Origin: a virus
Direction: 5' to 3' (one strand)
Length of the DNA: 64,000 bases
Virus record (IMG/VR): IMGVR_UViG_3300040802_000094
Span: 1-64,000 of that record
In this document: positions 1,748 to 40,979 of the stretch, piece by piece
How the letters are laid out: each line of letters starts with the position of its first letter
Numbering within the stretch: the first letter of the stretch is position 1
Notes under the pieces: model-generated
Seen by the model: the letters and a program-made list of their open reading frames with translations, nothing else
Told to the model about the DNA's origin: nothing
The model's database searches: none
Made by a program: the position numbers and the translations under genes

Positions 1748-3085
1748 TCATTGGATCTGGAGCGTTTCGAGGGAGGCTTTTATTGTTTCTCTGATGGCCG
1801 TCGGGTTTACCTTGCTCAAAAGTGTGTCGTTAAGGTTTTTGGTTTTATCCGGACTGAGTCCGCCAATCCGATGAAAAGGAAAGGGTTTTCCTTCGAGGAA
1901 GGCTTCGAGGATTGCTTCGTCTTGGGCGAGCGATTTTAGAAGGCCGATCTCGTCGGCACTCAGCGTTCCTCCAATTTCCGGGTTGCTGAGAATGCTTTGG
2001 ATTGCCTTTTGCAGTCCCGACGAAACGTCGTCAAGGGTCTTCGCCTTGACGATTTCTTTTTGGGCTTGTTGCTTGATCGTTTTTCCTAGTTTTGAAATTC
2101 TGCGAACTTCCGGGTTGGGGGACAGTTGGGAGACTTCTTCGGCAATTTGAGCGGCACGCTTCGTCAAGTCTTTCCCGACCGCTACTTTTACTTTGTTGGG
2201 GATTTTCGATACCTCTTTTAATTCGGACAACCCGGAGGGGGAGAGGAGTTTTTTGGCGATCGCGTTCGTGGCCGTACCTGCCGCTACGCCGGAAGCGACG
2301 CGAACGGCTAGGTCGATCCATTTTTTTTGCTTTTCGCTGAAGTCTCTGTTTTCGATCGCCTTTTTCGTTGCGGCGGAGGCACTTTCCGAAGCAGCGAACG
2401 AAGCGGCGGACGTTGCGAGTATCGCCCCGAGGGACAGGGTTCCGCCGAGTGCTGCCGAAATCAGAACTTCGGGTCCGACGGTCAGCGCCATGGAGATCGC
2501 CAGGGGGGCGCTCGCCTTGATCAGCTTTGCCGCCGTCTCCACGACTTCTTCTTTCGTTATTTTGTATTGGGGGTTCGCGATCGCGTCTTCGTAAGCGGCG
2601 TAGCGCGCGATCGCGAACTCCATTTTTTCTTTAAGCGAGGCGTCTTTGTCGGGGACGGGTAGCTTGGTTTTGAGAATGGCCTGCCTCAACGGGGAGTATC
2701 CCCGTCCGTAGATTTCTGCAAGTTCAGTTTCGTACTGCCGACTTAGCGTGTCGAGCTTTCGCTCGAATTCGGGGAAAAGATTGGCAGTTTTGAGGACCTC
2801 TCGCACGAGTTTCGCTCCCATCCGTCCCGCTTCTAGCCCGATCCGCCTTCGGAAGTCCTTGTCTCGCAGCGACTGGGAGACGATTTCCGACGTTACCCGC
2901 AATCCCTCCCGGAGCGATCGCGCGATCGCTCCCGCCGTTGATGTGGCAGAGGCAAAGCGACCGGAGGCGTCGCGGAAAACCTTGCCTCCCTCGATCCATG
3001 GCGCGTCATATTCTTTGGCTGCAAGTATTAGGTGGCATCGCAACAATGCGCATTGCGCCAAAATCGAACTTGTTCTGAGGTTCAT
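1748..3085 (-). CDS. Leader/RDASGRF-motif protein with hydrophobic hairpin (putative head-packaged effector)
   Basis: ILAA-KEYDAPWIEGGKVFRDASGRFAS; helical domain shared with 21824 and 22814; hydrophobic block TVGPEV shared with 13737 and 15807. Confidence 0.75.
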   Translation of the reverse strand: MNLRTSSILAQCALLRCHLILAAKEYDAPWIEGGKVFRDASGRFASATSTAGAIARSLREGLRVTSEIVSQSLRDKDFRRRIGLEAGRMGAKLVREVLKTANLFPEFERKLDTLSRQYETELAEIYGRGYSPLRQAILKTKLPVPDKDASLKEKMEFAIARYAAYEDAIANPQYKITKEEVVETAAKLIKASAPLAISMALTVGPEVLISAALGGTLSLGAILATSAASFAASESASAATKKAIENRDFSEKQKKWIDLAVRVASGVAAGTATNAIAKKLLSPSGLSELKEVSKIPNKVKVAVGKDLTKRAAQIAEEVSQLSPNPEVRRISKLGKTIKQQAQKEIVKAKTLDDVSSGLQKAIQSILSNPEIGGTLSADEIGLLKSLAQDEAILEAFLEGKPFPFHRIGGLSPDKTKNLNDTLLSKVNPTAIRETIKASLETLQIQ

Positions 3086-7471: not shown

Positions 7472-7487
7472 ATCAAGGAAAAAGCAA

Positions 7488-10887: not shown

Positions 10888-10945
10888 GACAATCAACTAA
10901 AAACCCGTTGCGACGTCGGTTGCAACGGGTTTTTAGTTGATTGTC
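10888..10945. terminator. Long inverted repeat (27-bp arms, one G-U)
   Basis: gacaatcaactaaaaacccgttgcgac-gtcg-gttgcaacgggtttttagttgattgtc. Confidence 0.7.
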
Positions 10946-11008
10946 GATGTTATCTTATGTCCTTTTCTAGCAATCTTATATGCTGTTGATGTAGTTAAGG
11001 GACAAAAA

Positions 11009-12040
11009 ATGGACAGCAAAGTCACGTTTTGTGTGATGCCCGGAAAGCAGGGCGATCGCGATTTTTATGTCACCTCCCTGCCTTACGGGCAGTTGGCGGC
11101 GATCGTTCAAATCGCCGATTCCGCGATGCCGATCGAGCTTCGCAATCAACGACAGATCGACCCGCGCAGGGTCAAAAAGATCGTCGATTACCTCGAAGAG
11201 AAAAGATCGAGGTTCGTATTTCCCTCGATCTTTTTAAACCTCGATCCGAAGGCGGAAGTCTCCATCGAACCCGTTTCCTCGGGAGCGATCGAAATGAGCC
11301 TTCCCCTCGGGAAAACGAGGTTGTTCGTCGTTGACGGCCAACACCGACTTACGGCGTTGGCCGAATGGTACGAGCAGACTGGAGACTCTTCAATCCTTGA
11401 AGAGTCTCTTTCTGTGATGATTTTCCGCCTGGACGAGAAGGGTCTCAGGGAGGCGTTTGTCGATATCAACTCGACGGCAAAGCCCGTCGATAAGTCGGCG
11501 ACATCCTTTCTGGGATCCCCGTCGGGCGGTGCCGATCTCGCAAGGGCGATAATTGGCAGAGGCCCAAAGGGTATGGAAGGAGAGTATACGATCCCCGTAC
11601 TTCGGGCGATCGTGGATCCGGACAAGCGCGTGACGGCTACCTCGAAGGTTCCGAAGCTGTTTGGCTTTGAGGCGATCGAGGAGGTCGTTTCAAAGTCGTT
11701 CGGAACGAAAACCCCTTTCCTGCAAAGAAAAAAAGCCGTATGGCGGTTTTGGAAAGGGGTTGCCGAGAACGTCCCGGAATGGGGCGAAGTCGCCGAACTC
11801 AGAGGAATCACCGCGAGACAGGCGGCAATTCGCATCCGCCAAGAAGGGATCGCCGGAACCCTTCTTTTTATCCGAGCTTTGTCTCGGGTATGCGAAAACC
11901 ATCCGGGGAAGGACGCCTTCTCCGATACGGACTTTTCCGGGCTGCGATCGCTCCCCCTAATGAGGGGCGATGAGGCGATCGCCTCATCGCCCCCGACACC
12001 GGACGTATTCGGGCGAATACACGGACAATCGCTCAATTGA
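11009..12040 (+). CDS. DndB-like DGQHR-domain protein (ParB/Srx superfamily)
   Basis: RNQRQID...RVKKIVDYL...FVFPSI...VVDGQHR...AFVDIN; ATG at 11009 after AAGGGA. Confidence 0.88.
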   Translation: MDSKVTFCVMPGKQGDRDFYVTSLPYGQLAAIVQIADSAMPIELRNQRQIDPRRVKKIVDYLEEKRSRFVFPSIFLNLDPKAEVSIEPVSSGAIEMSLPLGKTRLFVVDGQHRLTALAEWYEQTGDSSILEESLSVMIFRLDEKGLREAFVDINSTAKPVDKSATSFLGSPSGGADLARAIIGRGPKGMEGEYTIPVLRAIVDPDKRVTATSKVPKLFGFEAIEEVVSKSFGTKTPFLQRKKAVWRFWKGVAENVPEWGEVAELRGITARQAAIRIRQEGIAGTLLFIRALSRVCENHPGKDAFSDTDFSGLRSLPLMRGDEAIASSPPTPDVFGRIHGQSLN

Positions 12041-12080
12041 GCGAGTTGATCCAAAGTTATATAGCGTAGCCTTGAGATTG

Positions 12081-12114
12081 AAGCCGCCGCAATAATCGAT
12101 TATTGCGGCGGCTT
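12081..12114. terminator. 34-bp perfect palindrome / bidirectional terminator
   Basis: aagccgccgcaataatc|gattattgcggcggctt between convergent genes. Confidence 0.75.
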
Positions 12115-13671
12115 TTCTGTATTTTCGTCGGCTTTATTGAGGGATTCCGTAAAGGCTCCCCAGGCAGAGTGGGCGGAAATCCCCGTTACGTGACGACTCA
12201 TGTGTCCGATGAAATCGTCTTTGCTTTCGTAGGGCGCGCCCTCGCGAAGTTGTCGGACTTGAGACTCGGTCTTGAGTCCGAATTTCTTTTTGAGGTCTTC
12301 GTCGCTACTGTCTGTCGATATTGAGGTATTGATGCCCTTGACGATCGCGGATTCCTCTTTCCCGATTTCCCCTGGAATGTTGAAACTGCCCGACTGTCGC
12401 ATCAGCAGGCCGCACTGGAGGATCCGGAAGGCGCGATCGCCCGCCCGACTGTTTTCGCTCTTGAATAAATCGGAATCCCCGTCGAGGTTGCCGTTGAGGA
12501 CGGATTCGGAGATTAAGTTGTAATCGTTTCGGAGACCCTCGTATTCCGTTTGCCACCTCGGATCGAGCTTGCTCGGATCGCCGGATTCGATCGCCTCGGC
12601 GAGGATGCGATCGTTGTAAGCGACGTCGCCCCGTTCGGATTGTGCGATTCGGATCGCGATATCCTGCCTGAGACGTTCCTTGACTTTTTCGTCTTCCATT
12701 ACGGTTTTGGAGACCATCCCCCCCGAAATCAAGTGCAGTCGGGTATTGGGATCTAGTTCCAGGATTTTTTCGGGGTCTTGAAGACCCCTGGCGCCGTCTT
12801 CCGAGAGGAGGCGATCGACATCGGCTTGCCCTTCCTCTCCCAAGCAATCGCTCAGCAGGGTTCGGGCAACTTCGATTCGCCCCTGAAGTTCTCGCTCTGC
12901 GGCAGTTTGTTGCGCTACGGTTTCGTCGATTGGCGTTGCCGCGTGGGTATCTCCCGTCATATTTGGGGAGCCTTTCCCTCCTAGCAAGACGAAACTCAAA
13001 TCGACGGTCGCGCTACGAAATCCGGCAGATCCCGCGATCGGATTGGACTTTTTGACAGAAACGGAAGAACAGAAGCAAGGGGCGTAGGTGGCGCCCCCAA
13101 CTCTGACGAACAATTTTTCGGGAGTACGATCGCCTTCCGTGTTTAGTCGTTGGAATGCAAAGATTTGTTCGGTCAGGTGAGATACGTCATATCCCTCTCG
13201 AACGTAGAAGGTAATGCTGAACGAGATTTCTCGGGCTGAAAGTCCGGTGAATTTCTGACCTTCGCGAATGTGGTCGCTTCCGTCTGCCTCCAGCTTTGCC
13301 GTTTGGCTTTCGCTGACCTCCGAGACTGCAATCCCCAAAAAGGAAGATCCTCCCGGATCCGTGTCGAAGAGAATCCCCTGGCGAAGTCCGTCGAGGGGAC
13401 GAATTTCAATTCCGTTGGAATGGGGCTGCGATCGCAAGTCTCTGGCTTGAGACTTGATCGGACTTTCTGGCGGCTGCTTCGGGAGTGAAGCGGCAAAGGG
13501 GTCTGACGCCCCCCCTTCCTGCGTGTCGTCTCCTTCTCCTCCTTCCTGCGTGTCGTCTCCTCCACCGCCAAAGCCGGAAAAGAATTTTTGGATGTTCCCA
13601 AAAAAGCTACCTTCCTCTTCGACGATTTCTGTGGTTGCAGGCTCTTCGGGGGCGATCGGATCGGTGACCAT
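12100..13671 (-). CDS. Contractile-tail tube initiator / baseplate protein (gpU or CIS-tube like) with long C-terminal extension
   Basis: FTGLSAREISFSITF...PEKLFVRVG...SSVSVK...RSATVDLSF pattern; possible HhH-like end (APYESKDDF). Confidence 0.55.
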   Translation of the reverse strand: MVTDPIAPEEPATTEIVEEEGSFFGNIQKFFSGFGGGGDDTQEGGEGDDTQEGGASDPFAASLPKQPPESPIKSQARDLRSQPHSNGIEIRPLDGLRQGILFDTDPGGSSFLGIAVSEVSESQTAKLEADGSDHIREGQKFTGLSAREISFSITFYVREGYDVSHLTEQIFAFQRLNTEGDRTPEKLFVRVGGATYAPCFCSSVSVKKSNPIAGSAGFRSATVDLSFVLLGGKGSPNMTGDTHAATPIDETVAQQTAAERELQGRIEVARTLLSDCLGEEGQADVDRLLSEDGARGLQDPEKILELDPNTRLHLISGGMVSKTVMEDEKVKERLRQDIAIRIAQSERGDVAYNDRILAEAIESGDPSKLDPRWQTEYEGLRNDYNLISESVLNGNLDGDSDLFKSENSRAGDRAFRILQCGLLMRQSGSFNIPGEIGKEESAIVKGINTSISTDSSDEDLKKKFGLKTESQVRQLREGAPYESKDDFIGHMSRHVTGISAHSAWGAFTESLNKADENTEKPPQ

Positions 13672-13736: not shown

Positions 13737-15807
13737 ATGCTTTTGAATTTGAGGTTGGCGGCGGCAGTCGCGATCGCGGAATGCAATAGCCTCGGCTTGC
13801 AGGTCGAGGCAAAGGATCGCCTTCGCTATCCGGCGGGATCTGTCGTGGATGGCATCAGTGTTGGCGGTCGCTTCAAGCCGAAAGACGAGGCAGAGGTTCT
13901 CGCCGAAGGAATCCAGACCCTCTCCGATTGGATCTTCAATGGCAACGATCGCCAGATAGAGAAAGGGTGGGACGCCTTTCTGCGGAAGGGCGATCGGAGG
14001 CTGGAGGAAGATCCGTCCTATCGCGATCGCTTTAACGAGATGTTCAAAGCAGTTCGCGACTCTGTTTCCGAGGTCTGGCATAAGGTATCCCCCCCCGATC
14101 GCGGAAGCCTTCGACGCGATCGAGGCCAAAGTCGGCAAAGTCCGCAAGTTCATGTCCGTCGAATCCCTCGACGACTGGATTGGGGGGCGAGTCGAGAAGA
14201 TCGACGAAGGGACGCTTGCCAGACTCGTCGCGGAAACCTTACAAGGGATGACGGTTCATGTCGCTACGGCTGCGCTGAATTTGGCTCCTGAAGTAATTGC
14301 GGGGATGGCGTTCGGCCAGGCGATCGTTCCCATCGTTTTGTCGGGGTTGGTATCCACGGCCATCTTTTCTACCGCTTTTGCTGGCTCTAACTTTTTGCTC
14401 GAAAAGGCGAACCTCCCTCCGGGAGTTAGAGGGGTTTTGTCTACGGGGGTTGCCGTCTTATCGACGTTTGCCCTCGGAGTCAAAAGTCCGGCGATCATGA
14501 AGGCGCTGCGATCGCGCAAGCTGATTTCGTCGGGAGAGAAACTGAGGGAGGCGGGGTTAAAGGTTCTAGCCGAAAAGGGAACCGATGTATCTCTCGTTCG
14601 GAAGTCAATACAAAAAGAAACCGCCGTACTTAAGCAGCATGGATTTGACAGCCTCGAAGACCTAGAAATTCGCCTGGGACAAATCAAAAAAGAATCGAAA
14701 TTTATTAAATCGTTCGACCTGATTCGCTGTACCCCGGGCGGCCCCCTTCAAAGATCTTTAATGAAGCGAGCGGCCAAAGATCTTGGAAAGGACGAATTTC
14801 GTAAGATACGGGAGTATTCTCGGCTTTCTTCGTTGCACAGCAATTCGATCGTCTCAAAAAGGGTAAGGGAACTTTCCTTGTTTGCTCCAGACAGTCAGCA
14901 TTTCAACTGGAGAAGACGAGTTGTTGAAGCGGACGCGAAATACGGACATCACTTGGATGAAATAAAGGATCCACTGTTGCGCAAGAAGGCGTATTCCAGT
15001 TTGATGAGGACACTTAAAAAGGGAAAATCCAACGACTTTAAGTTCAATATAATAAGTCCCGAAGCCCGTTTCCACATGCGATCGTTGAACCCGTTTTTAT
15101 TGCGACTGGATCCCTATACGAAGGATGAGATGTTTGAAGTAGTTCTTCGCGCTAAGTCTGGGTTCAAAGAATTCAAGAAACTTCACAACCATACGGCGGA
15201 GATTTACGTTTTCCCGGTAGGAAAACACAGAAGGGTCGAAAAGGCTGGTTCCTCAGTGTCGTTCATGTGGCGACCTCCCAAGTTGCCGTGGACTTCGCCT
15301 TCTCGTGCCAAGACTACAGTAAAAAAGATCCCGACGGAGCGACCTTCTTTTCTTGAATCGCTTGAAGCGTTGCGGGAGAGTGTTGGCGATCGCGGATATA
15401 TTATAGGGTTTGACGTTCTGGGGAATAACGCCAAAAACGTTAGAATGCTAAAGCTTTTGCCGGAAAAAGATCGAGCAAAAGCCGTCATGTGGCATGAGAT
15501 GACTCACGGGATTATGGCTTTAAATCCGAAGTTGGCGACAGAAACGGGATTGCATGTCGGCACGATTTATGACGAACTCGGTATATTTGGGGGATTTACG
15601 GATGGGTACGGTACGACACTCTATCCAAAACCTTTTTCAACTTCTTTGTATTCGGGGCCTCTTAGTGGTCGATACACGGCCTCTAATAACGAGTTCACCT
15701 CGATTGCCGCCGAACACCTTTCGCACCCCGACATGGCTTCTCAGTTAATCAAAAAAAATAAAGAGCAAATGTTGGCACTCCTGTCTATTCTCGATACGGC
15801 AAAGTAA
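13737..15807 (+). pseudogene. Leader-TM-HExxH metallopeptidase effector 1, frameshifted at a C8 tract (14089..14096)
   Basis: RBS GAGGAGG plus ATG 13737; RYPAGSVVDGISVGGRFKPK leader in ORF 13737..14291; removing one C joins it to ORF 14152..15807 (WHEMTH...NNEFTS), about 689 aa. Confidence 0.75.
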
Positions 15808-17815
15808 TGAAGAATATCAAGTTACATCTCAGCGCTTCGGCGGCGATCGCGGTAACAGAAATCCAACGATTCCTGTTGATTTGCGAAGAGGCTGCCGATC
15901 AACCCCGATGCCCTCCCGGGACGCCGAGGGGCGGGCAGTGGAAATCGAAAAAGGCGGGTGTGGAGAAAAGGCGTCATCCGATCCCTCCGACGACCGCCGA
16001 CCCGATCTCGAATCTGGGTCAACGGCGATCGCCAAAGATAACCCGATCGTCGTCAACGCGGGGGCGATCGGCCAAATCAACAAGATCTTTGACGACACGA
16101 TCGCCGCGTCCGAGGAGTTGCGGGACAACTACGAGCGATACCTGACCAATGCAGGCAAGGCGATGTCGGACGTTCTCGGGGCGATCGCTCCGCAAGCCCA
16201 GAAAGTATTCGATAAAATCTCCCTGCCCGAGGTCGATTCTTCTCCGGCTAACATGATGAACTTGGTCGGAAAGATCGAAAGTAGTGCCGCCGACATGGCA
16301 GTCGGCGAGTTGATGGGCAGCCTTGGAGAGCTTTGTTCTATTTTCCTCTGTCAGGGGCTAAAAGTATCCGCCACTTTGGGGCCGGAAATAGCCGTTGGCA
16401 TGATCGCGGGGCAGGCGATCGGTCCCGCGATCCTTGCCGCCGCAGGGGGCGCACTGGCTACGGTTGTGCTAGAGAAGGGGATCGAGTACACGCTGCGAGC
16501 CGTAGGGGCGGAGGAAGATGTGGCGAGATCGATAGGGAGCGCGATCTCGGTTGCTTCTTGTATTTTCGGCCTCGGCATAACTTCTCCAAAGTTACTTAAA
16601 GCCCTGCGTAGCAGGAATTTAATGAAGAACGCCGATGCTTTGAGGGAGTCTGGAATCAAGATCCTTTCTAAGAGCGGGGTTGACGAAAAGGTCGTTCGCT
16701 CGATCGCCCGGAAAGAAATGAAGGCGATCGAGGCAAAAGGTTTCGCTTCGCTGGAGGAAATGGAAAAACACCTCTTCGATCTGAGGAAGACAAAATTGGT
16801 CAAGCGAATCGAGGGACTCGACTTCGTCCAAGAGGAAAGCGTCCGGAGGGAAGCCATCTCGAACTTCCTCAAAAACGCCTCCCCCGAAGAATCTGCAAAA
16901 CTAAAACAGTTTTCCGAGCTTTCTCGGGTTCACGGGGATACGGTGGTCTTGAAGCGGCTTCGAGAGATTCCGGCGATTCGCGAAGGATCTCCTCAGTTCA
17001 ATTTGAGGAAGCGATTGATCGAAGCTTCGGCAAAATACAAGGACGATCTCGATGCGATTCGCGAATCGGGAGGGGCGACGGCAGAGTATTCGGCTTTACT
17101 CAAGAAAATCAGGCGAAAAGCGAAGAATCCATCCACCCTCCACCGCGCGACCGAAGCACAAGAAGAGGCTGGCGCTAACTTTGCAAAGGCACTAGTGCCG
17201 CAGCACGCAAGCGAGTTCAAAACGCTTGGGGCGGCAGAAAAGAACAAAATCGCCAGTCAAGCTGGCAAGGCTTTTGACGAATTCAAGCAAATTCACGGAC
17301 GAAAGCAGAATATAAAACTTGCGATCGTGGGGGAAGGGAAAAAGGGAACTCCTCCCACTGCCTTCATGCTAAATATCCCGAGAATCAAGAAGGATCTTCT
17401 TGGAAAAACACCGTTGTTTAGAAGGATTACCGATGCTTTTGAGGGGGACAAAAGTGTTTTACTTTTCGACAACAATCTTTCGGTATTGAGGGGAATCGAA
17501 AATCTCGACGAATTCGATCGGGTCAAATCTCTTGTGTGGCACGAATCTATGCACGATATCACTTTTGGCAACCCAAAATTGGCGCAAGAGACTGGCCTCC
17601 TCGTCCGACAGATTAAATCCGAGCTGGGCAGTTTTGGCGGGTTTGTCGATAATTACGCCTCAAAATTGTATGGAAATCCTTTTGAATCAATTAACAACGA
17701 ATCTCTCTCGATTGCGGCAGAAAGTCTATCTCATCCGAAGCTCATGAAAGGGTTTCTCGATCGCGGATCGGAGCAGATGCTCAACCTGCTGTCCGTATTG
17801 GAGAATGCGACATGA
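15807..17815 (+). pseudogene. Leader-TM-HExxH metallopeptidase effector 2, frameshifted near 15948..15970
   Basis: TAATG-coupled start; leader QPRCPPGTPRGGQWKSKK in ORF 15807..16145; body in ORF 15881..17815 (WHESMH...NNESLS); one added base restores about 669 aa. Confidence 0.72.
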
Positions 17816-19443
17816 TTTCCCGACTTTCGCTCTCTCTCCGTCTTTCCGAGATTTCAATGCGTTGCGCGCAGCTCGCGATCGCAGCAGAAATTGAGGGACC
17901 CGAGCGCTATCCGGCGGGGACGACGATCGACGGAGTCAACGTCGGCGGACGATTTAAGCCGAAAAACGCTACGTCGGGGGGATTGTCGGAGGATGCTCGA
18001 GAACTGACGTCCGATTTTCTTCAGAAAAAAGAGTCGATCCTTCAAAAGTTTGCCACTTCAGTCAGGGATTTGGTTTCGGAGGCGATCGCGTCCCCTCTTT
18101 TGCAAAGGCTGATCTACGGGGCTTACAACCGATTAAAAATAAAAAGCGTATCCCAAATCAACAAAGAACTGATCGATAAAGGGGTCGAGATCCTCGCCAA
18201 GGAAGGCGTCAGCAAGCAAGCCATCGAGGCGGCGATCGCTCGCGAGTCTCAAGAACTGAAGCGCAGGGGGTACGATTCTTTTGAGTCTCTAGAGAAAGAT
18301 GTCGCCAAAATCCTAGAGTCCCCCGAGATAAAGCAAATGGCCGCGAAGCTTTATCCTCACGCTGAAATTGAGGCGCTGATCGACGAAGACCCGTCTCTCG
18401 GCAGGAAGCTCAAAGATCTGTTCGACAAGTCGGGACTGCTGTCGGAGTGCGTCGCGACGAGGCGGGCGAGAGAAATGCCTTTCGTCGATCGCGACAGCAT
18501 CGGGTTTTCCTATCGAAAGCGGATCGTCGAGGCGGCGATCGCCTACGGCGGACAAGTAGACGCACTGCGGGGAGCCGAAGATCCCGCGATCGCCCACAGA
18601 CAAATCCTCGACACCTTGAAAGCAAACAAGAAGCACGACGGTAAGATAGACACTCACTTGCTCTTATTTAACGAGGCTGGCAAGAAAGCTACGGAAATGA
18701 AGCTAACCAAAATCTTCTCGCAAAAAGTGGAACTCGTTGACATGAAGCGGGGGGAAGGGAAGGCGATCGCGGATCGCCTTCAGGGTTATGCGAAAGAATT
18801 GTCGGAAATCACCGGATTCTCGTTGAACATCCCCTTCATGATTTGCGATTCCGAGATAAAACCCGGCAACAACCTAATGACGTTCGTCGGGGGTCTGAAG
18901 GATGTCGTCGCTTTCGATCCTCAGTACCTCGACAAGGAGTACCTCGACAATCTAATTTCGTCGTTTACTTCGACCAAGCACTCGGGCAATGTGTTTTCCT
19001 TCAACAAGAATCTTGTCGATATCGACGCCGTACGTCGGTTTGACGATCAAACCCAAAAAGAGCGGGAAAGAGGCTACGTTTGGCACGAGATCGGACACGA
19101 AATCTCCCGTAATAATCCTCAACTGACGAAGGAGACGGGGTTTTTAGTGTTTGATTCGTACAACCAGTTCGGCAGGGTTGGAGGGTTTACCGATTTTTAC
19201 GCGACCTTTGTCCAGCCCGGCATTCCCGATGTCGGACCACTGCCCACCATTCCCGTCAGCGACGCCTTTTCCTTATTAAACAAAATGCACCTTCGACCGT
19301 TCCGCTCGAAGGACGTTTACAATACCGAGGCTTTTTCGATCGGCGTCGAGTCGCTTTCTTCTGCCAACTACGCGCAGTATTTCGCGCAGAGGAGTCCCGA
19401 GCAGTTACTCAACACTTTATCCGTTTTGGAAAATGCTAAATAG
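17812..19443 (+). CDS. Leader-HExxH metallopeptidase effector 3 (intact, lacks the TM module)
   Basis: LAIAA...RYPAGTTIDGVNVGGRFKPK; WHEIGH...GGFTDFYA...NTEAFS; ATGA-coupled. Confidence 0.85.
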   Translation: MISRLSLSLRLSEISMRCAQLAIAAEIEGPERYPAGTTIDGVNVGGRFKPKNATSGGLSEDARELTSDFLQKKESILQKFATSVRDLVSEAIASPLLQRLIYGAYNRLKIKSVSQINKELIDKGVEILAKEGVSKQAIEAAIARESQELKRRGYDSFESLEKDVAKILESPEIKQMAAKLYPHAEIEALIDEDPSLGRKLKDLFDKSGLLSECVATRRAREMPFVDRDSIGFSYRKRIVEAAIAYGGQVDALRGAEDPAIAHRQILDTLKANKKHDGKIDTHLLLFNEAGKKATEMKLTKIFSQKVELVDMKRGEGKAIADRLQGYAKELSEITGFSLNIPFMICDSEIKPGNNLMTFVGGLKDVVAFDPQYLDKEYLDNLISSFTSTKHSGNVFSFNKNLVDIDAVRRFDDQTQKERERGYVWHEIGHEISRNNPQLTKETGFLVFDSYNQFGRVGGFTDFYATFVQPGIPDVGPLPTIPVSDAFSLLNKMHLRPFRSKDVYNTEAFSIGVESLSSANYAQYFAQRSPEQLLNTLSVLENAK

Positions 19444-19452
19444 GGGGAGATT

Positions 19453-19785
19453 ATGGCTGTAGTTAAAATTAAATTTGTCAACGTTGAAGATTCCAGTCAC
19501 TACGTCAAAATTACTTTAGACAAAGTGCCTGAGTTCGAGTCCGACTCCGTCGCCTTCAGGTACGAAACGAACCGGGAAAAGGACGATCGCTTTCTCCTGG
19601 GCTTGGTGGTCGGGAGGCACTGGCGCATGAAGACTGGCGTTTGCAGTGCGGCTGAGATCGTAGACGCCGCATTGCAGACGGCATTGATGGAAGGGTTCCG
19701 CTTGGTCTCCGATATTCCGGAACTCAAGCCAGCGAAGCCGCTTTCAGAAGAGCAGAAAAGAATACAAGACCTCATTATCGATTGA
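19453..19785 (+). CDS. Hypothetical protein closing the metallopeptidase operon
   Basis: 110 aa, RBS GGGGAG. Confidence 0.75.
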   Translation: MAVVKIKFVNVEDSSHYVKITLDKVPEFESDSVAFRYETNREKDDRFLLGLVVGRHWRMKTGVCSAAEIVDAALQTALMEGFRLVSDIPELKPAKPLSEEQKRIQDLIID

Positions 19786-19789
19786 TTTC

Positions 19790-19827
19790 GCCCACCTAAA
19801 TTGCAGACGTCTGCAATTTAGGTGGGC
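19790..19827. promoter_or_regulatory. 38-bp perfect palindrome containing AATTGCAGACGTCTGCAATT (copy 1; parS/operator-like, may double as terminator)
   Basis: gcccacctaaattgcagac|gtctgcaatttaggtgggc. Confidence 0.75.
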
Positions 19828-19839
19828 TTTATTCTAGCC

Positions 19840-21843
19840 ATGAAATACAGCCGCCATTTTTTCTATAACCTGCCCGCCTACGCCCAGCTCATGGACGATC
19901 GCGGTATCTTGGAGCATTTCCTTTCGGGATTGCAGGACAACCTGGACGAAATCCGCAGCCGCCAAGAGTTTCTGCGAATTATTGTTTATTCCGTGGACTA
20001 TTGTCCCGACGAATGGCTGCCGTGGCTCGGGCAGTGGGTCGGCCTTTCCGGAGAACGCGATCGTTTTCTCGGTATGGGCTTGAATCCGGATTGGCCGACC
20101 GCTCACAAGCGGGAGGTCATCCGCAGAGCTTGGGAGTTCTGGAATCGGAAAGGAACCGAATGGGCGATCAGAGAGGGGACGGCGCTGTGGCTGAGGTGGG
20201 AAGAGTCCCACGATCGCGATCGCCTGGAATTCGTCCATCCATTTGGCAAGCAGATCGGCGATCGCCCTCCCCTTTGGCAAGGCTGGGGCGATCTTTGGAG
20301 TGCTGGGGCGACTCGCCTGACGACCGAGCGCCGGAGACTGGGAGGGGGCGATCGCCAGCCGAACGACGTTTTGGAGAAATTTGATTATTTCGTTCCGAGA
20401 TCTCCTCATGGAAATCGCTTCAACAGGCGGTGGCCGACGCGGAATTTGTATCGAATCGATCGCCCCACTTACCGGGAAGGGTCTCGCCTCGGTCCCCACA
20501 GCGTCTGGGAGCGTTTTACCCGGCTGACTGAAAACGAGTGGCATCGATTCTTCCCCGACGTCGTCAAGCTCAACTACGAATTATGGGCGACGGAGGTACG
20601 ATCGCTCCCGATAGGGGAAATGGAGATAGGAACGCTCTCCGTTTCCATATTTCCTGAGAAACCGAAAGTCGTCGTCCGGTCGCACTTCCGCAAAACGTCC
20701 GTGGACGGGATTCAATTTGGGGACAAATTTCCCCGTCGCAAAAGCGGCTTCACCCGGACTTCTCCTGTCGAGACAGGGGGGTGGGCGACGCGGCGGTTCC
20801 TCCGTTTCGGCGATCGCCTGGGAGCTTTTCCCTACGATAGGACTTCGCTGAAGGACGCGATCGTTCTCAACTTTTTCCCAAAGAAAAAGAGTTCGAGTAT
20901 TTACGGAAATCCTTACGGATCGTGCCGAATGCTCGAACTCAAAACAAACCCTTCTCAACTCCCGCACAACCATTTTTGGCTGCTGTCTACCTCTCTGAGA
21001 CCCGGGTTTCCCTGGCCGTCCAGGTTTTTGCCCGGCTCTGTTGAAATTTTTCGGCGAGCTGAAACTGCCTTTTATCCTACAACTTCTCCTGCCGTTTTGT
21101 CTCGCGGCCTCGTCCCGACTACGGAGTTTTATTCCAATACTTCGTGGGGAATGTATGCGGGGCGAGGGAAAGTGCAAGGAGAATCCACCGTCTTCGTGCC
21201 GACATGCGATCGCCCTGGACTGGCAAAAGCCTTTGAAACGTCCCACTGCACTCCGTCGCGGCGATCGTTCGAGGCGGACGTTAAAAACAACCCCTCTCGA
21301 TTCGAGAAAGGTCGGTGGGGAAACCTCTGGTATCGCGAGCGGTTTTTTGTTAGAGGGGTATGGGGAGAAATACCCGGAAATTGTTGGACGGAGAGATCGC
21401 GGTATCCGACTTGCGGGATTTACAAACAATTTTCGCGACGACAAGTTCGCGGGTATTTCTACGAAACGATTGAAGAGAATTCGCCAAAAGAGCGATATCC
21501 TCAAATAAGAGAGATGGCAACGGTCTCTAACTGGGAAATCTTGCTTACTTTAGGTGGAGGACATGCGATCGCCTATCCTTCGGCATTCTTCGGGATTGAC
21601 GAATCTGGCAATCGCGTGTCCTTTTTCTCTCCCGCGATCTCGCGCGGTATCCTCGAATTTTCTATATCGGTCGGCCAGCAAGAGTGGTGTTCGGGGATCT
21701 CGTTGCTTTATAAAAAAGGAAAAATCCGACTTCACAAAGGGTTCGACCGCCCGATCTGTCTCGCTCCAAAAACGATGGGAGTATTTAGGGCAACGATTGA
21801 AATCGATTATATGGAGATCGAATATGATTCTTTTGGAGGCTAA
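19840..21843 (+). CDS. Baseplate/tail protein I-like (P2 gpI N-terminal domain) with long Trp/Arg-rich extension
   Basis: YCPDEWLPWLGQWVG...KREVIRRAWEFWNRKGTEWAI. Confidence 0.8.
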   Translation: MKYSRHFFYNLPAYAQLMDDRGILEHFLSGLQDNLDEIRSRQEFLRIIVYSVDYCPDEWLPWLGQWVGLSGERDRFLGMGLNPDWPTAHKREVIRRAWEFWNRKGTEWAIREGTALWLRWEESHDRDRLEFVHPFGKQIGDRPPLWQGWGDLWSAGATRLTTERRRLGGGDRQPNDVLEKFDYFVPRSPHGNRFNRRWPTRNLYRIDRPTYREGSRLGPHSVWERFTRLTENEWHRFFPDVVKLNYELWATEVRSLPIGEMEIGTLSVSIFPEKPKVVVRSHFRKTSVDGIQFGDKFPRRKSGFTRTSPVETGGWATRRFLRFGDRLGAFPYDRTSLKDAIVLNFFPKKKSSSIYGNPYGSCRMLELKTNPSQLPHNHFWLLSTSLRPGFPWPSRFLPGSVEIFRRAETAFYPTTSPAVLSRGLVPTTEFYSNTSWGMYAGRGKVQGESTVFVPTCDRPGLAKAFETSHCTPSRRSFEADVKNNPSRFEKGRWGNLWYRERFFVRGVWGEIPGNCWTERSRYPTCGIYKQFSRRQVRGYFYETIEENSPKERYPQIREMATVSNWEILLTLGGGHAIAYPSAFFGIDESGNRVSFFSPAISRGILEFSISVGQQEWCSGISLLYKKGKIRLHKGFDRPICLAPKTMGVFRATIEIDYMEIEYDSFGG

Positions 21844-22798
21844 ATGCCTTGCTTGCGAAACAGATTTGACGCGATTGATCGTTCTCGCGCTCGCAGCAGA
21901 GCCGGAGGCGACAAAACCCGGATCTGGAACCGTCGAAAAGTATGCTGCCGACTGGCTCGAAGGTGGGAAGACAATCTACCGCGACGCCTCCGGTCGTTTC
22001 GCTTCGGGGGTGAAGCGAGAAATCGCGAAGCAAGCGATCGAGGATACGGGAAGGAAGGTCGCCCGAACGGCGCAGGACTTAGGGGAGTCCGCCGGAATCG
22101 CGATCGTCTCCATTCCGATCCTTGCGGAAATCGGCTTGGACGCCGTACGAAATTTGGCGACGAACCCGGATTTTCGTCGGCGTGCCGGACTGATGGCCAC
22201 TCAGGCGATGGGGAGCGCGATCGCCGCTTTCGCGAAAAAGCTGTCGGAGGACTCCAAGGTTGCCAAGATTGCGGGAGAATACGCGGCCAGGGCGCAAAAA
22301 GAACTAGAAAAAGAATACGGAGCCTACAACAATCCAGTCACCCAAGCGGTGTGGGAAGCGCGATCGCTTGTGGACTCTACCGTACTGAGTCGCCCCGAAG
22401 CTAGGCTGAGGGGAGTCAAAAAGCAGCTTACCCTCGGAATTTGTCAGTACGTGGCTCTAGAGCAGGCGCTCAAAAAGCCGAGAAAAATTTCCAAGGATAT
22501 ATTGGACGTTTCCAAGGCATCTCTTTACGGAATCGTCATTCCTGCCGTCCTGCTCGGCAGCCCGATCGCCGGAGTGGGAGTCGGAACTGCATTGCTCCTC
22601 CTGTCCGTACCGGGAATCGAGTTGGCGAAGTCCAATTTGCTCGCCTATTTTCGCGAGAAGCAGAAACAGGAGAAGGCGCTAAGGGAGGCGATCGCCTCCG
22701 GGACGAAGACGGTAGAAGACGGTTTCAAGTTATCGATGGAAATTGCTAAAAAATTCATTGACGAGACGCTAAAAGCTATCCAGTCAAAAGGTTCGTAA
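21824..22798 (+). CDS. Leader/RDASGRF-motif membrane protein (putative head-packaged effector)
   Basis: ATG 21824 after GGAG; YAADWLEGGKTIYRDASGRFAS; C-terminal hydrophobic hairpin. Confidence 0.8.
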   Translation: MILLEAKCLACETDLTRLIVLALAAEPEATKPGSGTVEKYAADWLEGGKTIYRDASGRFASGVKREIAKQAIEDTGRKVARTAQDLGESAGIAIVSIPILAEIGLDAVRNLATNPDFRRRAGLMATQAMGSAIAAFAKKLSEDSKVAKIAGEYAARAQKELEKEYGAYNNPVTQAVWEARSLVDSTVLSRPEARLRGVKKQLTLGICQYVALEQALKKPRKISKDILDVSKASLYGIVIPAVLLGSPIAGVGVGTALLLLSVPGIELAKSNLLAYFREKQKQEKALREAIASGTKTVEDGFKLSMEIAKKFIDETLKAIQSKGS

Positions 22799-22813
22799 CC
22801 GGGAGGGTTGACA

Positions 22814-23704
22814 ATGTCTTTCAAAACCAGAATTTCTCCATATTCTTGCACGATCGCGCTTTCGCTATCTCAACTGAGTACGTCGATAGACCTTCGGTCG
22901 GCAGGGACGAAGGAATACGAGGCCGATTGGTTAAAAAGTGGCGTCAAGGTACTGCGGGACGCTTCCGGTAAATTTGCCTCCAAGGCGGGAGATGCCACTC
23001 AGGCGGTAGGGAGTGCGTTCGCGGCAGTTCCCCTGGGGCTGGTGATTTCCGAAAAAATCGTACTCGACCTCGCGACCGACCCCAAGGTAAGGAAGCGTTT
23101 GGGGTTGATGGCGGGACAAAGTACGGCCAAGGCAATATCGAAAGCTGTCGAAAAGATAGACAAAGACTCTGCTTTCGCAAAGCGGATGGGGGAATATGCC
23201 ACATCCTTGCAAACTATGCTTGAAAAAGAATACGGGGAACAGAAGAGTCCTCTACTACAGTCGCTACACGAGGCCGCACTCATCACTGGCGGCGATCGCT
23301 CAAAAAAGACGAAGCTAAAAGATAAGATAGAGTTCGCCGTTTGCCAGTACGCGGCCTTCCACGAAGCGTTGAAAGATCCGAGGAATTTAAAAGAAGAGGA
23401 CATCAATCCAAAGTTCCGCAAGGAGGTAATGAACTTCGGAACCCGCACTTATGTTGAGGGAGTAGCGGTCAGCATCCTATTTGGCAATCCCCTCTTCTTG
23501 ATAACGGGACTTCCGGCATTGCACATCATGTTTCCCGAGATAAAATCCAAGGTTAAAAAAGCTCGCCTCGATCGCTACGCAAAAGGAGCAGGCGAGGCCG
23601 AAGGGCTGTCGAAACAAACCCAGGCGATCGCCGAAGACCAGCGCAAGGCAATTGAAAAATTGCTCGACGAGAGGAAAAAGGAAGCGTCGGCAACCCGCGA
23701 TTGA
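22814..23704 (+). CDS. Leader/RDASGKF-motif membrane protein
   Basis: KEYEADWLKSGVKVLRDASGKFASK; CQYAAFHEALKDP matches paralogs. Confidence 0.8.
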   Translation: MSFKTRISPYSCTIALSLSQLSTSIDLRSAGTKEYEADWLKSGVKVLRDASGKFASKAGDATQAVGSAFAAVPLGLVISEKIVLDLATDPKVRKRLGLMAGQSTAKAISKAVEKIDKDSAFAKRMGEYATSLQTMLEKEYGEQKSPLLQSLHEAALITGGDRSKKTKLKDKIEFAVCQYAAFHEALKDPRNLKEEDINPKFRKEVMNFGTRTYVEGVAVSILFGNPLFLITGLPALHIMFPEIKSKVKKARLDRYAKGAGEAEGLSKQTQAIAEDQRKAIEKLLDERKKEASATRD

Positions 23705-23748
23705 CGACAAGACGGATTTCAAGTAGGGTATCCATAAAGGAGATTTTG

Positions 23749-24789
23749 ATGAATACAGTTTTTGCCATAAAAGCCGTTTCCCTCCGTCACGATTTAAGAC
23801 GTCTGCAACTGTGCTGCGCTTCCAGCAGGATCGAGGCGGCGGAACTCAAGGAGTACGACGCAGACTGGCTCGATGGAAAGAAGGTAATGCGGGATAGCTC
23901 GGGACGGTTTGCTTCCAAAGTGGCCGACACCGCCAGCCAAGTCTCTAAGGCGGCAGGAGCGATCGCGGAAGGCGTCCGATCTCTCGCGGAAGATGTCGGT
24001 TACCTGTCTCAATATGCGGGTCCCCTCGCTACCGCCACGGCGCGAGGGGTAATGAACGCCGTTTCCGACCCTAGATTCTTGAAAAATCTGGCTCTGGAGG
24101 TCGGCAGCCGTGCGGGAGATTTGTATTTGGCGATCGGCGAAATGATTGGAGCGATAGACAACCCTGTCGCTCAAGCTGCCGCGATTCCTCCGTTCGTCGC
24201 CGGAACCTCGCTAAAGATGGCCTTCGGAGCTGGCTTGATGTCCGACTACGGCTCGGCTGGCAGCGCAACGCGGCAGGCGGACAAAGATGTTGCGGAATAC
24301 ATGAAGTCGAACAACAAGCCGGAAGATAAAAAGAAGAAAGTTAGAAATTTTCTAGAGAAGCAGATCCTGGGATTTATCGCTTTTGAAAAAGCACTGGAAC
24401 ACCCCAAGAATGTAGAAAAAGCGAAGGAAAACAAAGAAGAAAATAAGAAGGCGAAGTTGCTCGGACATGCGGCCTTCGGTGGCTTTTGTGGCGGGATGCT
24501 CGCGTTAACCGCGATTAAGAACGGACTGATGAGCGCCGCTCCCGCCACGTCGATCCCCGCAATCTTGATTCCGGCGATCGGCGCTTCGCTCTTCAAAGGA
24601 CTCGATAAGGATACCAGTGCGAACCTGAAAGAGTTCCTTCAAAAATGGCAGAAGGAAGAAAAGGCTGCTAGGGAAGACGGCGTTTCGGAAGAAAAGATCC
24701 AGAAGCAATCCCTCGACTTCATGAAAAAGTTTTTCGCCCTCGGGAAAGGCGCGGTGGACAAGACGGTGGATGCCGCGATCGGCGCATAA
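23749..24789 (+). CDS. Leader/RDSSGRF-motif membrane protein
   Basis: RBS AAGGAG; RIEAA-ELKEYDADWLDGKKVMRDSSGRFASK; glycine-rich hydrophobic segments. Confidence 0.8.
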   Translation: MNTVFAIKAVSLRHDLRRLQLCCASSRIEAAELKEYDADWLDGKKVMRDSSGRFASKVADTASQVSKAAGAIAEGVRSLAEDVGYLSQYAGPLATATARGVMNAVSDPRFLKNLALEVGSRAGDLYLAIGEMIGAIDNPVAQAAAIPPFVAGTSLKMAFGAGLMSDYGSAGSATRQADKDVAEYMKSNNKPEDKKKKVRNFLEKQILGFIAFEKALEHPKNVEKAKENKEENKKAKLLGHAAFGGFCGGMLALTAIKNGLMSAAPATSIPAILIPAIGASLFKGLDKDTSANLKEFLQKWQKEEKAAREDGVSEEKIQKQSLDFMKKFFALGKGAVDKTVDAAIGA

Positions 24790-38140: not shown

Positions 38141-38154
38141 GTTTGGAGCGAGTT

Positions 38155-39861
38155 ATGTCCGATCAATTCATCGAAGCCATCGGCAAAACCCTCAGCCAGA
38201 AAAATGTTTCGCGACTCAAGGAAATTTGGTCGTCGCTTACTGAGCTGCTGGCGAGTACGGGAAACCTCGAAATAGAAGATCTACCAAAAACTTTAATCGA
38301 CCCGCAATCTCAATACGACCTTCACAATATGGAAGGAGAGATTGCCGCTTCCGGGCGAAAAGGTATTGATGTCGGCGCGCAACTCGAATGTACGGCGTGG
38401 GCTGCAAAAGTCAACAGGCTCGCCGACATTTTCGCTCTTTTGTTGCGTACTTATCCTAGGGTATTCAAATACGAACAAGAGGGTGAAGCCGAATTCGAGC
38501 CTCCCGAAGAACGGCTCAGCCGACTGCTGAAGGAGATAACGGACGCCGCTTTTTTGCTTTGTAAGGAAAAACCAGACACCCGCTCAAATGCGGATATTTA
38601 TGCGAGTTCGGGAGAGGGAGAAAAAGAAGACTTCGGCGATCCTTCAATATCCAAGGCCGAAGGGGAAACGGAGTCCGAAAGTACTTCGGATGTCGAGACC
38701 GAAACCTTGATGGCAAGAGATCTCGCGGAAGCCGAAGGCGAGGTTCGCGAAGTTTTCAATATTGAAATTGCCGCGCGAGCGATGCCGACCGCCAAGAAGG
38801 CCGCCAACGAAAGGCCGATCGACGGAATCCTCTTCCAGGTCGATCGGCCCAGCGAGGCAATTCCGGAAGTGGGGCCCGGCTTGCCCCTGTTGATTCCGAA
38901 AGAGGTCGCCCTGGCGGCGATCGCGGACATCACCCCCGGGAAACCAAAACCCTTGGACGCGCACGACACCTTCGCCCGCCATTCCAACCGAGATATTGTC
39001 GGCGCCATGACCAGCGCCTACCTCGAAGGAGACGACCTCGTCGTCCAGGGAGTCCTTTGGGATTACAACCAGCCGGACAAGATTCAGGCGATCGGCCAGG
39101 AGACACAGCGTCTCGGCATGTCCGTCAATGCGACAGCCGACGGACATGTCGCCGAGTGGGGCGGAACGAAAGTCTGGCAGGTAGATCGCCTGCAGATCTT
39201 GGGTGCAAACATCTTGTTTTCGGATAAAGCGACTTTCAAGCGGACGCGGATTATTCGCGCGATCTCGAAATCTTCTTTGGGGGATTTCGAGCAGCCGATC
39301 GCGGCGCGGGCGGAAGATTCGCCGGACTCGGAAGACCTGCCTTTAAACAAAACCTTCGACCCAGAAGAGGACACCATGAGTAACGAAGCAATTTCACAGC
39401 AAATACAAGTGATCGCAAGCTCAGTCAAGGAAGTTCAGACGATCTTCGCCCAGGAACTGGAAGCGTTGCAGGAAGCCGTCCGAGACCTGAGTACGCAAGT
39501 CTCGGATATCCAGTACGAACGGGAGCAAAGTCAGAGTTCGATCCAGGCTGCCGCGCAAGAAGAAGCCAAGCAGAAAGAAAGAGAGGATTTGCTGGCATCG
39601 ATCGCCGAAGTCGTTGACGCAAAACTGGCGAATCTTCCCGGTCCTCGGCGAGCGGGCTACAGCATTCCACTTGCCGCGTCGAGTCCGCCTTCGGCAACGG
39701 CTGGCGATCGGAAAATGGAAATCCAACTGCAATTGAGCAAGTTAAACGGACAGATTGAGGTAATGCAGCGAGATCCCAATATGTCCGGCTCTCCAGAAAT
39801 CATTTCGTTGATCGACAACCGTCGCCAGCTCGTCGCCCAACTAGAATCCTTCGCCAACTAA
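38155..39861 (+). CDS. Prohead protease-scaffold protein
   Basis: Directly upstream of capsid; central domain H...IVGAM...LVVQGVLW...LGMSV...GANIL; acidic coiled-coil C-terminus; repeated [IL]xA[AS] sites. Confidence 0.7.
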   Translation: MSDQFIEAIGKTLSQKNVSRLKEIWSSLTELLASTGNLEIEDLPKTLIDPQSQYDLHNMEGEIAASGRKGIDVGAQLECTAWAAKVNRLADIFALLLRTYPRVFKYEQEGEAEFEPPEERLSRLLKEITDAAFLLCKEKPDTRSNADIYASSGEGEKEDFGDPSISKAEGETESESTSDVETETLMARDLAEAEGEVREVFNIEIAARAMPTAKKAANERPIDGILFQVDRPSEAIPEVGPGLPLLIPKEVALAAIADITPGKPKPLDAHDTFARHSNRDIVGAMTSAYLEGDDLVVQGVLWDYNQPDKIQAIGQETQRLGMSVNATADGHVAEWGGTKVWQVDRLQILGANILFSDKATFKRTRIIRAISKSSLGDFEQPIAARAEDSPDSEDLPLNKTFDPEEDTMSNEAISQQIQVIASSVKEVQTIFAQELEALQEAVRDLSTQVSDIQYEREQSQSSIQAAAQEEAKQKEREDLLASIAEVVDAKLANLPGPRRAGYSIPLAASSPPSATAGDRKMEIQLQLSKLNGQIEVMQRDPNMSGSPEIISLIDNRRQLVAQLESFAN

Positions 39862-39866: not shown

Positions 39867-40979
39867 ATGGGTATTTCTTTTGCCTCGCCACAAATGGCGC
39901 AAAGGCTGGATTCGTTCGGATTCCAGCGCTCTTACGACTTACAAGCAGCCGCAACTCGACTCGACGGATCTTTTCTGACCCATCGGGACGACTTCATGTC
40001 AACGATCGGACACTATATCAGAAACAGTCAGGACGTCCGGCTGTGGAAGATGATCCGGAAGGAGTTGGCGGAAGCGGATCTGAACAGAGAGGCTATCGAG
40101 GGACAGGATCCCGAGTCCGGCTTCATGAGCAAGAACAACATGAACCCTCCCGTCAACGACGTCGCAAATCCGGCGTCGCACGATTTAAGCGATCCGGGTC
40201 AACTCAATAAAGCGATCGGAGGAATCATCCAGACCGGGCATTATACCGAAAGTATGTGGAGGCAGCAGGGCAAGCCCTACGGAAATCAGCTCTCCGATCG
40301 CACGATGAAGCTGATCAGCTCGATGGTCAAGAATGTCGAGCGCGCTTTATTTCGGGGCAATGCCACGACAAACCCCCTCGAATTTAACGGACTGGAGCAG
40401 CAAATGGATCCCACCCATTTGTTCGAGGCGGATATTACGGCAGGTGACTCGGTAGTCAAGAAGTTGCGAGGGATCGTCCGCCTGTCAATATCCGACGAAA
40501 CGATCCTGAGATCGGTCACGCACATCTTCACGACAGCGTTGGGCGTCCAGCTTCTCGAAGACGAGACAGACATGAAGCTGGAATACCACAACCTCGATCG
40601 CGTTTCTCCGGGGCTGTCGGTTCCGTCGATCGTCACACATCGCGGGCTGATGCCTATCGTGGACTCCCCCTTCCTTCGGGACGAGAAAGGGGCGACCGAC
40701 GCCGACCCCGACTATATTGACTACTGGCTGCTCGACATTAATTCGCTGTGCTGGAAAGGGGTTATTCCGAAAGGGGCGAACGTATCCAATCCCAACAGCC
40801 CTTCCCCGTCGGATTTCGACCCGCAGATTTTCGACATCACGCGATACACCGGAATGGGCGACTTGATGGTCGAAACCCGTATCGGCCTGATGTATGGCAC
40901 GCTATATGCCAAAAACAGAGGACAGGGGATTTGGAAATTGAGAGTTAAAGTTCCGCCGCTAACCGTCGCTTCAATTTAA
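39867..40979 (+). CDS. Major capsid protein (HK97 fold)
   Basis: 370 aa; VERALFRGNATTNPLEFNGL motif; position after scaffold. Confidence 0.85.
   Translation: MGISFASPQMAQRLDSFGFQRSYDLQAAATRLDGSFLTHRDDFMSTIGHYIRNSQDVRLWKMIRKELAEADLNREAIEGQDPESGFMSKNNMNPPVNDVANPASHDLSDPGQLNKAIGGIIQTGHYTESMWRQQGKPYGNQLSDRTMKLISSMVKNVERALFRGNATTNPLEFNGLEQQMDPTHLFEADITAGDSVVKKLRGIVRLSISDETILRSVTHIFTTALGVQLLEDETDMKLEYHNLDRVSPGLSVPSIVTHRGLMPIVDSPFLRDEKGATDADPDYIDYWLLDINSLCWKGVIPKGANVSNPNSPSPSDFDPQIFDITRYTGMGDLMVETRIGLMYGTLYAKNRGQGIWKLRVKVPPLTVASI

Follow-up and report, generated by a model that had tools for sequence, protein, structure and literature searches.

This report describes seven leader-bearing genes in the virus record IMGVR_UViG_3300040802_000094, together with the short N-terminal module that they carry, a candidate tag for loading proteins into the phage head. 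The window analysed comprises the first 64 kb of this record (G000, 84,955 bp; CheckV completeness ~45%), and most of its genes are without a Pfam or PHROG match. The seven open reading frames (ORFs) and their N-termini, with leaders of 23–31 amino acids (aa) and the leader ends listed in a first-pass annotation of the sequence, were all reproduced. The motif that follows the leader is of the Y-x-A-[DP]-W type in four genes and of the R[YC]PxG type in three, as had been described there. By local BLASTP the ORFs split into two paralog families, A (four members, E values from 1e-10 to 1e-31) and B (three members, 1e-28 to 1e-72), and a hidden Markov model (HMM) of the A-type N-terminal module had no match to the B N-termini in the window. 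The single seven-member family of the first-pass annotation is therefore two families by sequence; the leader that both have in common was shown through a related phage, L045, described below.

Members of family A have invariant positions right after the leader, namely Y, A, W, G, RD, SG and FAS (Y.A.W..G...RD.SG.FAS), and a helical domain next to them. A1 (1748..3085, minus strand, 445 aa) has a 23-aa leader ending in ILAA, the motif KEYDAPW...RDASGRFAS, a helical core, a hydrophobic GPE hairpin at residues ~191–225 and a long helical tail; it scores E 1e-16 against the N-module HMM. The other three members are on the plus strand. A2 (21824..22798, 324 aa) has a leader ending in LAA, an extra 13-aa linker, the motif EKYAADW...RDASGRFAS, a helical core and hydrophobic segments. 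A3 (P0002; 22814..23704, 296 aa) has a leader ending in LRSA, the motif KEYEADW...RDASGKFAS, a helical core and a hydrophobic segment, and A4 (23749..24789, 346 aa) a leader ending in IEAA, the motif KEYDADW...RDSSGRFAS, a diverged helical core and a hydrophobic segment. An identical A3 was also found on other contigs, one of them of 99 kb.

In family B, which is encoded on the plus strand, the leader is followed by R[YC]PxG...GG[RQ][FW]K, and the C-terminal domain contains an invariant WHExxH. B1 (13737..15807) has a leader ending in VEA, the motif RYPAG...GGRFKPK, a hydrophobic hairpin and a HEMTH domain, and its frame is broken. B2 (15807..17815) has a leader ending in EEAA, the motif RCPPG...GGQWKSKK, a hydrophobic hairpin and a HESMH domain, and also shows a frame change. 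B3 (17812..19443, 543 aa) is intact, with a leader ending in IAA, the motif RYPAG...GGRFKPK and a HEIGH domain, and is devoid of the hydrophobic hairpin. Hydropathy and alignment agreed with the earlier placement of the HExxH motif and of the GPE/APE hairpin, the latter being present in A1, B1 and B2; other hydrophobic stretches occur in A2–A4 and none in B3. The hydrophobic GPE/APE region of A1 weakly matches the B profile (E 7e-4). Pfam and PHROG searches with all seven proteins gave no family match, and hence none to the T4 IP or Alt families.

The AlphaFold2 (AF2) model of A3, based on 43 sequences, predicts a leader helix at residues 9–30 (predicted local distance difference test, pLDDT, 60–70) and a beta-hairpin formed by the motif at residues 33–36/45–48 (pLDDT ~80), with low-confidence helices elsewhere. 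Foldseek searches of PDB and BFVD with this model and with that of the B3 C-terminal domain gave nothing significant.

The frame of B1 changes at a run of eight C (14089–14096) and is restored by a +1 shift, or by one base less or two more. In B2 the frame shifts by -1 within ~15948–16090, where a run of five A (15948–15952) and a run of four A (15966–15969, tcg-aaa-aag-g) are the candidate sites. Once the frame is followed through, B1 is colinear with B2, and therefore both are taken as single genes with an indel in this assembly. Indels in the family A gene A4 also recur between assemblies of the same phage; the A4 versions of other public assemblies (P0004, P0044) change frame right after ...KKVMR, where there is no homopolymer. 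Over the whole record (1–84955), 15 homopolymers are exactly 8 bases long and no run is longer; such a ceiling has a likelihood of ~1% if each run of at least 8 bases is extended with a chance of 25%, a hint that the assembly cuts long homopolymers short. The C8 run and the AAA-AAG at the two breaks are slippage-prone sequences. Programmed frameshifting was nevertheless judged unlikely for B1 and B2, and less likely than assembly error or strain variation, since the breaks do not coincide in position or direction, the genes are uninterrupted in B3 and in all relatives, and indels occur elsewhere in other assemblies (P0004, P0044). Stop-codon recoding is not needed, since both breaks are frame changes.

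Within the HExxH domain of family B, H211, E212 and H215 were invariant across seven sequences, and so were E292 and E299 (candidate metal ligands). The domain had no Pfam, PHROG or PDB sequence match, and Foldseek against PDB found nothing; when the A, B and protease-scaffold alignments were used as profiles against PDB sequences, only coiled-coil noise came back. The AF2 model of B3 residues 215–543 has a pLDDT of 61.8 and a predicted template modelling score of 0.67. Exhaustive structural alignment of this model placed zincin peptidases first, namely 4l7a, a Bacteroides zinc metallopeptidase (Z 5.6), PPEP-3 (4.9) and PPEP-2 (4.7), with lethal factor (Z 4.3) and an MtfA-like hydrolase (Z 3.5) as further neighbours. 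The domain resembles M34 anthrax lethal factor, the Pro-Pro endopeptidases and M90 MtfA in having HExxH and conserved downstream Glu residues, and differs from the gluzincins in that there is no sequence match and the structural Z is below the reliable level. It is probably a very divergent gluzincin-like peptidase.

The distribution of the module was assessed with a profile of the four A proteins, scored exhaustively against 1.84 billion representative proteins. A total of 91 cluster representatives matched, 45 of them below 1e-10; four were the phage's own products (P0002–P0005). About half of the remaining matches cover the entire unit of leader, motif and helical core, and the others only profile positions ~20–70, which are located at residues ~10–60 of proteins of 60–1179 aa. 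The leader (median 27 aa, range 17–37) followed by KEYxAxWL(5x)VxRDxxG[RK]FA[SK]K was present in 78 sequences, comprising 75 matches and three window proteins. The first-pass annotation had recommended an HMM search with leader and motif for cataloguing the attached C-termini; the profile search found the tag on dozens of proteins with unrelated C-termini. Word-based homolog searches with B3 and with the B alignment yielded nothing, and with A3 only A3 itself; single-protein scans of IMG/VR gave no match. No homolog was found among GenBank phages (50,697 records) by megablast of the region or by tblastn of the protein P0017 and of the capsid protein. The sole match in species-representative prokaryote genomes was a metagenome bin holding the same phage contigs. 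Several such phage contigs (L005–L008; JBIPLY010000571-573), each with multiple leader genes, are present in a Lake Mendota metagenome-assembled genome labelled Acetobacteraceae bacterium; they are either prophage or co-binned virus DNA, and the label says little on the host.

Leaders vary in sequence and are constant in character: L, A, Q and I predominate, with Q as the third commonest residue, K, R, G and P are scarce, and the ends read A/E/C, A/E and G/A/E, then one aliphatic residue. Cys, which had been described as a general feature of the leaders, is frequent, occurring in 46 of 70, without being universal. In 54 of 70 leaders the first 8 aa carry a net charge of zero or below; apolar runs are broken by Q, E and R, the longest having a median length of 4 and a maximum of 8 (n = 70). 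None of the seven window leaders contains a 19-aa window reaching a Kyte–Doolittle value of 1.5, and inspection of the leaders for a lipobox was negative. An amphipathic helix was considered for the leader and rejected, the hydrophobic moment at 100 degrees being below that of shuffled controls; the periodicity peaks at 150–160 degrees (z ~11).

Pfam searches of the homologs identified several types of cargo behind the module: an ADP-ribosyltransferase exoenzyme domain (ADPrib_exo_Tox) in P0047 and P0070, Pkinase in P0054 and P0080, a GNAT acetyltransferase in P0053, TPR and thioesterase domains, and a weak M90-like peptidase match in P0073. Over residues 1–282, P0017 shares 94% and 85% identity with two close paralogs, and no similarity to them remains beyond. 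The conserved unit is therefore the leader with the hairpin and the helical/hydrophobic core, and the C-termini are exchangeable. The two families are also connected by cassette exchange, as a 782-aa protein of a related contig (L001:1967-4315) carries an A-type module and core followed by a B-type HExxH domain (hhalign 96.9%, E 1.9e-10). Similar A-module/HExxH fusions were present in L037 and L021, and a 301-aa protein of L034 consists of the HExxH domain alone. Both this fusion of the A N-module and core with the B HExxH domain and the likeness of the A1 hairpin to the B profile bear out the module shuffling proposed in the first-pass annotation.

The related phage L045 (Ga0209229_10000212) has eight consecutive leader genes (2631–12923) downstream of its capsid gene, with one leader and four post-leader motifs: A-type, B-type, F-K-D-K-x-G-N-T-I-N-R-K-R-G and K-E-F-D-E-S-K-V-K-R-N-x-F-G-M-F. 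Its B-type motif, RHPVG...GGQYK, matches the B profile (E 1e-5), and a basic stretch and G-[KRQM]-[FYL] recur in all four motifs, which points to a single structural motif with several sequence solutions. As one leader precedes both A and B types in L045, the common tag claimed earlier for the seven proteins is correct, although it cannot be shown from the window alone. The number of tagged genes per phage is seven in the window, eight in L045 and at least seven in the related phage G001.

The head genes of the window include a major capsid protein (39867..40979, plus strand; PHROG major head protein, E 7e-5) and, upstream of it, a candidate processing enzyme, here called protease-scaffold (38143..39861, plus strand). 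The latter has a prohead protease domain at residues ~219–380, a conserved H...GMS.NA...LGAN block and a scaffold-like C-terminal coiled coil with SIQAAA at residue 467; its ESM Atlas model has a template modelling (TM) score of 0.72 to Peptidase_S77 prohead protease clusters and of 0.66–0.70 to capsid maturation protease–MuF fusions. In G001, L023, L024, L027 and L031 the gene order is protease-scaffold, capsid, one small gene and two to five leader genes.

The capsid protein of the window has LQAAA at residues 25–29, and its alignment to relatives begins at residue 19–24; the capsid proteins of three lineages align only from just past such junction-like sites. LQAAA is accordingly proposed as a putative propeptide junction resembling the leader ends. 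Among the real genes of the window (25,958 aa), the pattern [LI]QA[AEG][AG] occurs only at capsid residue 25 and at scaffold residue 467. In G001 it occurs five times in 15,829 aa, at three leader ends, capsid residue 20 and protease-scaffold residue 13, with LLQAGA and LLQAEA as the pair formed by leader end and capsid N-terminus. In L045, QTEA is restricted to capsid residue 22 and to residue 20 of two leaders. In three lineages, then, the leader ends resemble the capsid N-terminus of their own lineage, a likeness between short motifs that is suggestive and strongest for L045.

We consider it fairly probable that the tag is a propeptide-type capsid-targeting tag for packaged and ejected effectors, one that would work in the manner of the T4 capsid-targeting sequence and the P1 DarB signal and that represents a new sequence family. 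To the broader proposal we give an even chance: the leader and beta-hairpin would be an undescribed capsid-loading tag serving polymorphic effector delivery across an uncultured clade of large freshwater/mat phages. Each head would receive 7–9 paralogs with a membrane-active core and swappable zincin peptidase, ADP-ribosyltransferase, kinase or GNAT domains, and the tag would co-evolve with the protease-scaffold and the capsid N-terminus; this, too, is as likely as its opposite. The first-pass annotation had claimed that a common addressing tag loads diverse cargo into the head. The tag, the diversity of the cargo and the linkage to head genes were all recovered, and it is packaging, together with cleavage, ejection and the action of the cargo, that we infer.

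The proposed loading module would consist of two parts, a leader of ~23–31 aa, rich in L/I/Q/A, predicted helical and ending in A/E-A/G, and a short basic beta-hairpin, KEYxAxWL...RDxxG[RK]FA or R[YH]PxG...GG[RQ][FYW]K. During prohead assembly the leader would dock the precursor onto the scaffold/protease core, the prohead protease (38143–39861) would cut it off at the A/E-A/G junction, which is like that of the capsid N-terminus, and the mature proteins would remain in the head and exit with the DNA. These steps (docking, cleavage and exit) are put forward because of the analogy with T4, P1 DarB and SPN3US. The hairpin could serve as docking element for the protease, the scaffold or the shell. 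The cargo of this phage would be composed of four helical proteins with hydrophobic hairpins and three HExxH zincin-like peptidases, two of them also with a hairpin. A role of the hydrophobic core as conduit or pore and an anti-host or anti-defence role of the peptidases are speculation.

Several results weigh against capsid loading. Pfam, including S78, finds no prohead protease family in the product of 38143..39861, and that the phage encodes a prohead maturation protease is a thin assignment, made from a single line of evidence, the model comparison. The junction motifs were picked after viewing the sequences. An unbiased position-specific scoring matrix (PSSM) of the leader ends, applied to 25,182 windows, places the capsid site of the window only at rank 6 and the scaffold site at rank 11, in the company of unrelated proteins, and the capsid site of G001 lies outside the top 22; the leader ends of the window itself (ILAA, VEA, LRSA, etc.) fit the capsid junction only loosely. 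The leader has no amphipathic signal at 100 degrees, the AF2 models are of modest confidence (pLDDT ~62), and the zincin fold match is weak (Z ≤5.6), with every Z below the tool's own reliability level. Finally, the leader genes of the window are located outside the head operon and flank a gene for a Tail_P2_I-like protein (19822..21843, plus strand, 673 aa; N-terminal Pfam match with E 1.6e-10, PHROG tail families), and the leader-gene ortholog just upstream of this gene keeps that neighbour in L001, L002, L020 and L021.

This position beside a tail gene, kept directly upstream in the relatives, is what favours the main rival, according to which the module sends the proteins to the tail, the baseplate or the tail lumen, as contractile-injection-like cargo or as tail-tip proteins for membrane penetration or wall degradation. 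Hydrophobic hairpins combined with a peptidase also recall the membrane-active, wall-degrading C-termini of tape-measure proteins. On the other hand, in several relatives most leader genes are directly behind the protease-scaffold and capsid genes, the leader ends resemble the capsid N-terminus and the scaffold sites, and ADP-ribosyltransferase, kinase and GNAT cargo act in the cytoplasm. The Tail_P2_I match itself spans just 80 N-terminal residues of the product. A tail destination is, on this evidence, unlikely.

The same linkage to head structural genes in relatives, and the likeness between capsid N-terminus and leader end, speak against the view that these are non-virion proteins made after infection and acting in the host, with the leader as an uncleaved helix for oligomerisation or membrane association. 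Moreover, within a phage the leader is constant and the cargo varies, which fits a common phage-encoded partner. This intracellular alternative is favoured by the strongly non-random hydrophobic pattern of the leader (150–160 degrees) and by the hydrophobic segments of most members; we regard it as quite improbable.

Double-glycine leaders, as in bacteriocin precursors, have hydrophobic positions at -4/-7/-12/-15. Leaders of this export/processing type would be cut by a C39-like cysteine peptidase, and the window does encode a Peptidase_C39_2 (33190–33957, E 7e-21), the leader ends being G/A-rich at positions -2 and -3. The hydrophobic spacing of the leaders misfits that pattern, the cargo consists of large enzymes and not of peptides, the junction motif is also present in the capsid protein, and three related phage records, which are incomplete, have no C39_2 match; processing of this kind is very improbable. 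A Sec signal peptide combines a positively charged n-region with an unbroken apolar h-region of ~7–15 residues and an AxA-type c-region. Sec or lipoprotein signal peptides exporting the proteins from the infected cell, an outcome that the first-pass annotation had itself named as contrary to its claim, hardly merit belief, since the weakly positive start of the window leaders and the 8-residue apolar run before VEA in B1 are outweighed by the charge and the short, interrupted apolar runs seen family-wide, by the hydropathy of <1.5 in the seven window leaders and by the lack of a lipobox.

A group II intron reverse transcriptase/maturase, complete and with an HNH domain (26712–28508, plus strand), is situated between the last leader gene and conserved genes for 740-aa and 552-aa proteins; relatives lack the reverse transcriptase at this place. 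A sensor kinase cassette is also present in the window. Two fibre-like paralogs (7795–9588, minus strand, and 50204–51505, plus strand) match PHROG 'head decoration' and tail-fibre families (E 6e-31 and 2e-49), and relatives have three or four tandem copies of such genes near the head genes. A gene for a non-specific DNA/RNA endonuclease (Endonuclease_NS) with a hydrophobic N-terminus (9585–10427, minus strand, E 3e-36) adjoins one for a DndB-like protein (10937–12040, plus strand, E 1e-34), both just upstream of the B genes. The gene at 42003–42638 (plus strand) encodes a 211-aa protein without assigned function. A homolog of it directly adjoins a leader-plus-peptidase gene in L001, L002, L018 and L032, and the protein may be a functional partner.

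Proteins injected by a phage are its first weapons against host and host defences, and they are difficult to identify, since the known targeting signals, such as the capsid-targeting sequence (CTS) of T4 and that of P1 DarB, are short and not conserved. The putative signal described here is a conserved, searchable module, with which dozens of cargo architectures of uncultured phages were catalogued; among them are ADP-ribosyltransferases, kinases, an acetyltransferase and a new family of zincin-like peptidases, and cassettes are swapped as in polymorphic toxins. If capsid loading is true, a single HMM would suffice to draw up the repertoire of injected effectors of these phages from sequence. 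Confirmed packaging would provide a sequence rule for injected effectors in a clade without a cultured member, a natural protein-packaging tag and an example in which targeting tag and capsid maturation site evolve together. The principle is known; novelty lies in the module itself, in how it is conserved, in its bipartite build, in how many tagged paralogs a phage carries and in the list of cargo.

In phage T4, the prohead protease gp21 removes the CTS from IPI–III and Alt and also trims the capsid protein. The CTS is a short N-terminal tag that directs diverse internal proteins to the scaffolding core of the prohead (PMC3012670), and Alt, injected together with the DNA, is the classic example of a packaged ADP-ribosyltransferase (PMC5512222). 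The present module is similar in being a short N-terminal tag on otherwise diverse proteins, with ADP-ribosyltransferases among the cargo in relatives. It differs in having no sequence similarity to the CTS, in its length (~27 aa plus a conserved beta-hairpin motif of 25–30 aa, compared with ~10 aa in T4) and in its junction, which is A/E-A/G here and L/I-x-E in T4. The putative cargo is also much larger than that of T4 and often has a hydrophobic core domain.

In phage P1, the N-terminal 30 aa or fewer of DarB, a very large multi-domain enzyme that is ejected, are enough to bring it into the capsid, and the Dar proteins have no recognisable consensus tag (PMC9024508). In contrast, the tag described here recurs in conserved form on as many as eight or nine paralogs of one phage and in many different phages. 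One weak neighbour of B3 in a language-model feature search was a 'DdrB domain protein' cluster (score 0.88), which is a lead only. Phage SPN3US has paralogous, head-internal ejection proteins whose propeptides are cut by the prohead protease at a shared motif (A-x-E); two of these propeptides are of 20–24 aa and most are of 111–254 aa (PMC10052503). These E proteins, of a phiKZ-like phage, do not have a common tag-plus-hairpin module, and no homology to them was detected with Pfam or PHROG.

MuF and polyvalent proteins combine a conserved N-terminal part for virion association with swappable C-terminal effectors, among them ADP-ribosyltransferases and zincin-like metallopeptidases (PMC5512222). 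The MuF domain (PF04233) had no match in the seven proteins and is not among the 25 most frequent Pfam families listed for 86 homologs. The analogy with MuF-type polymorphic toxins that was drawn in the first-pass annotation holds only at the level of logic. The present system differs from MuF in having several separate paralogs per phage instead of one giant polyprotein, each with a cleavable-looking leader, a hairpin and a core. It is similar to the MuF polymorphic toxins in its sharp recombination boundary, with variable effector C-termini behind a conserved N-terminal part.

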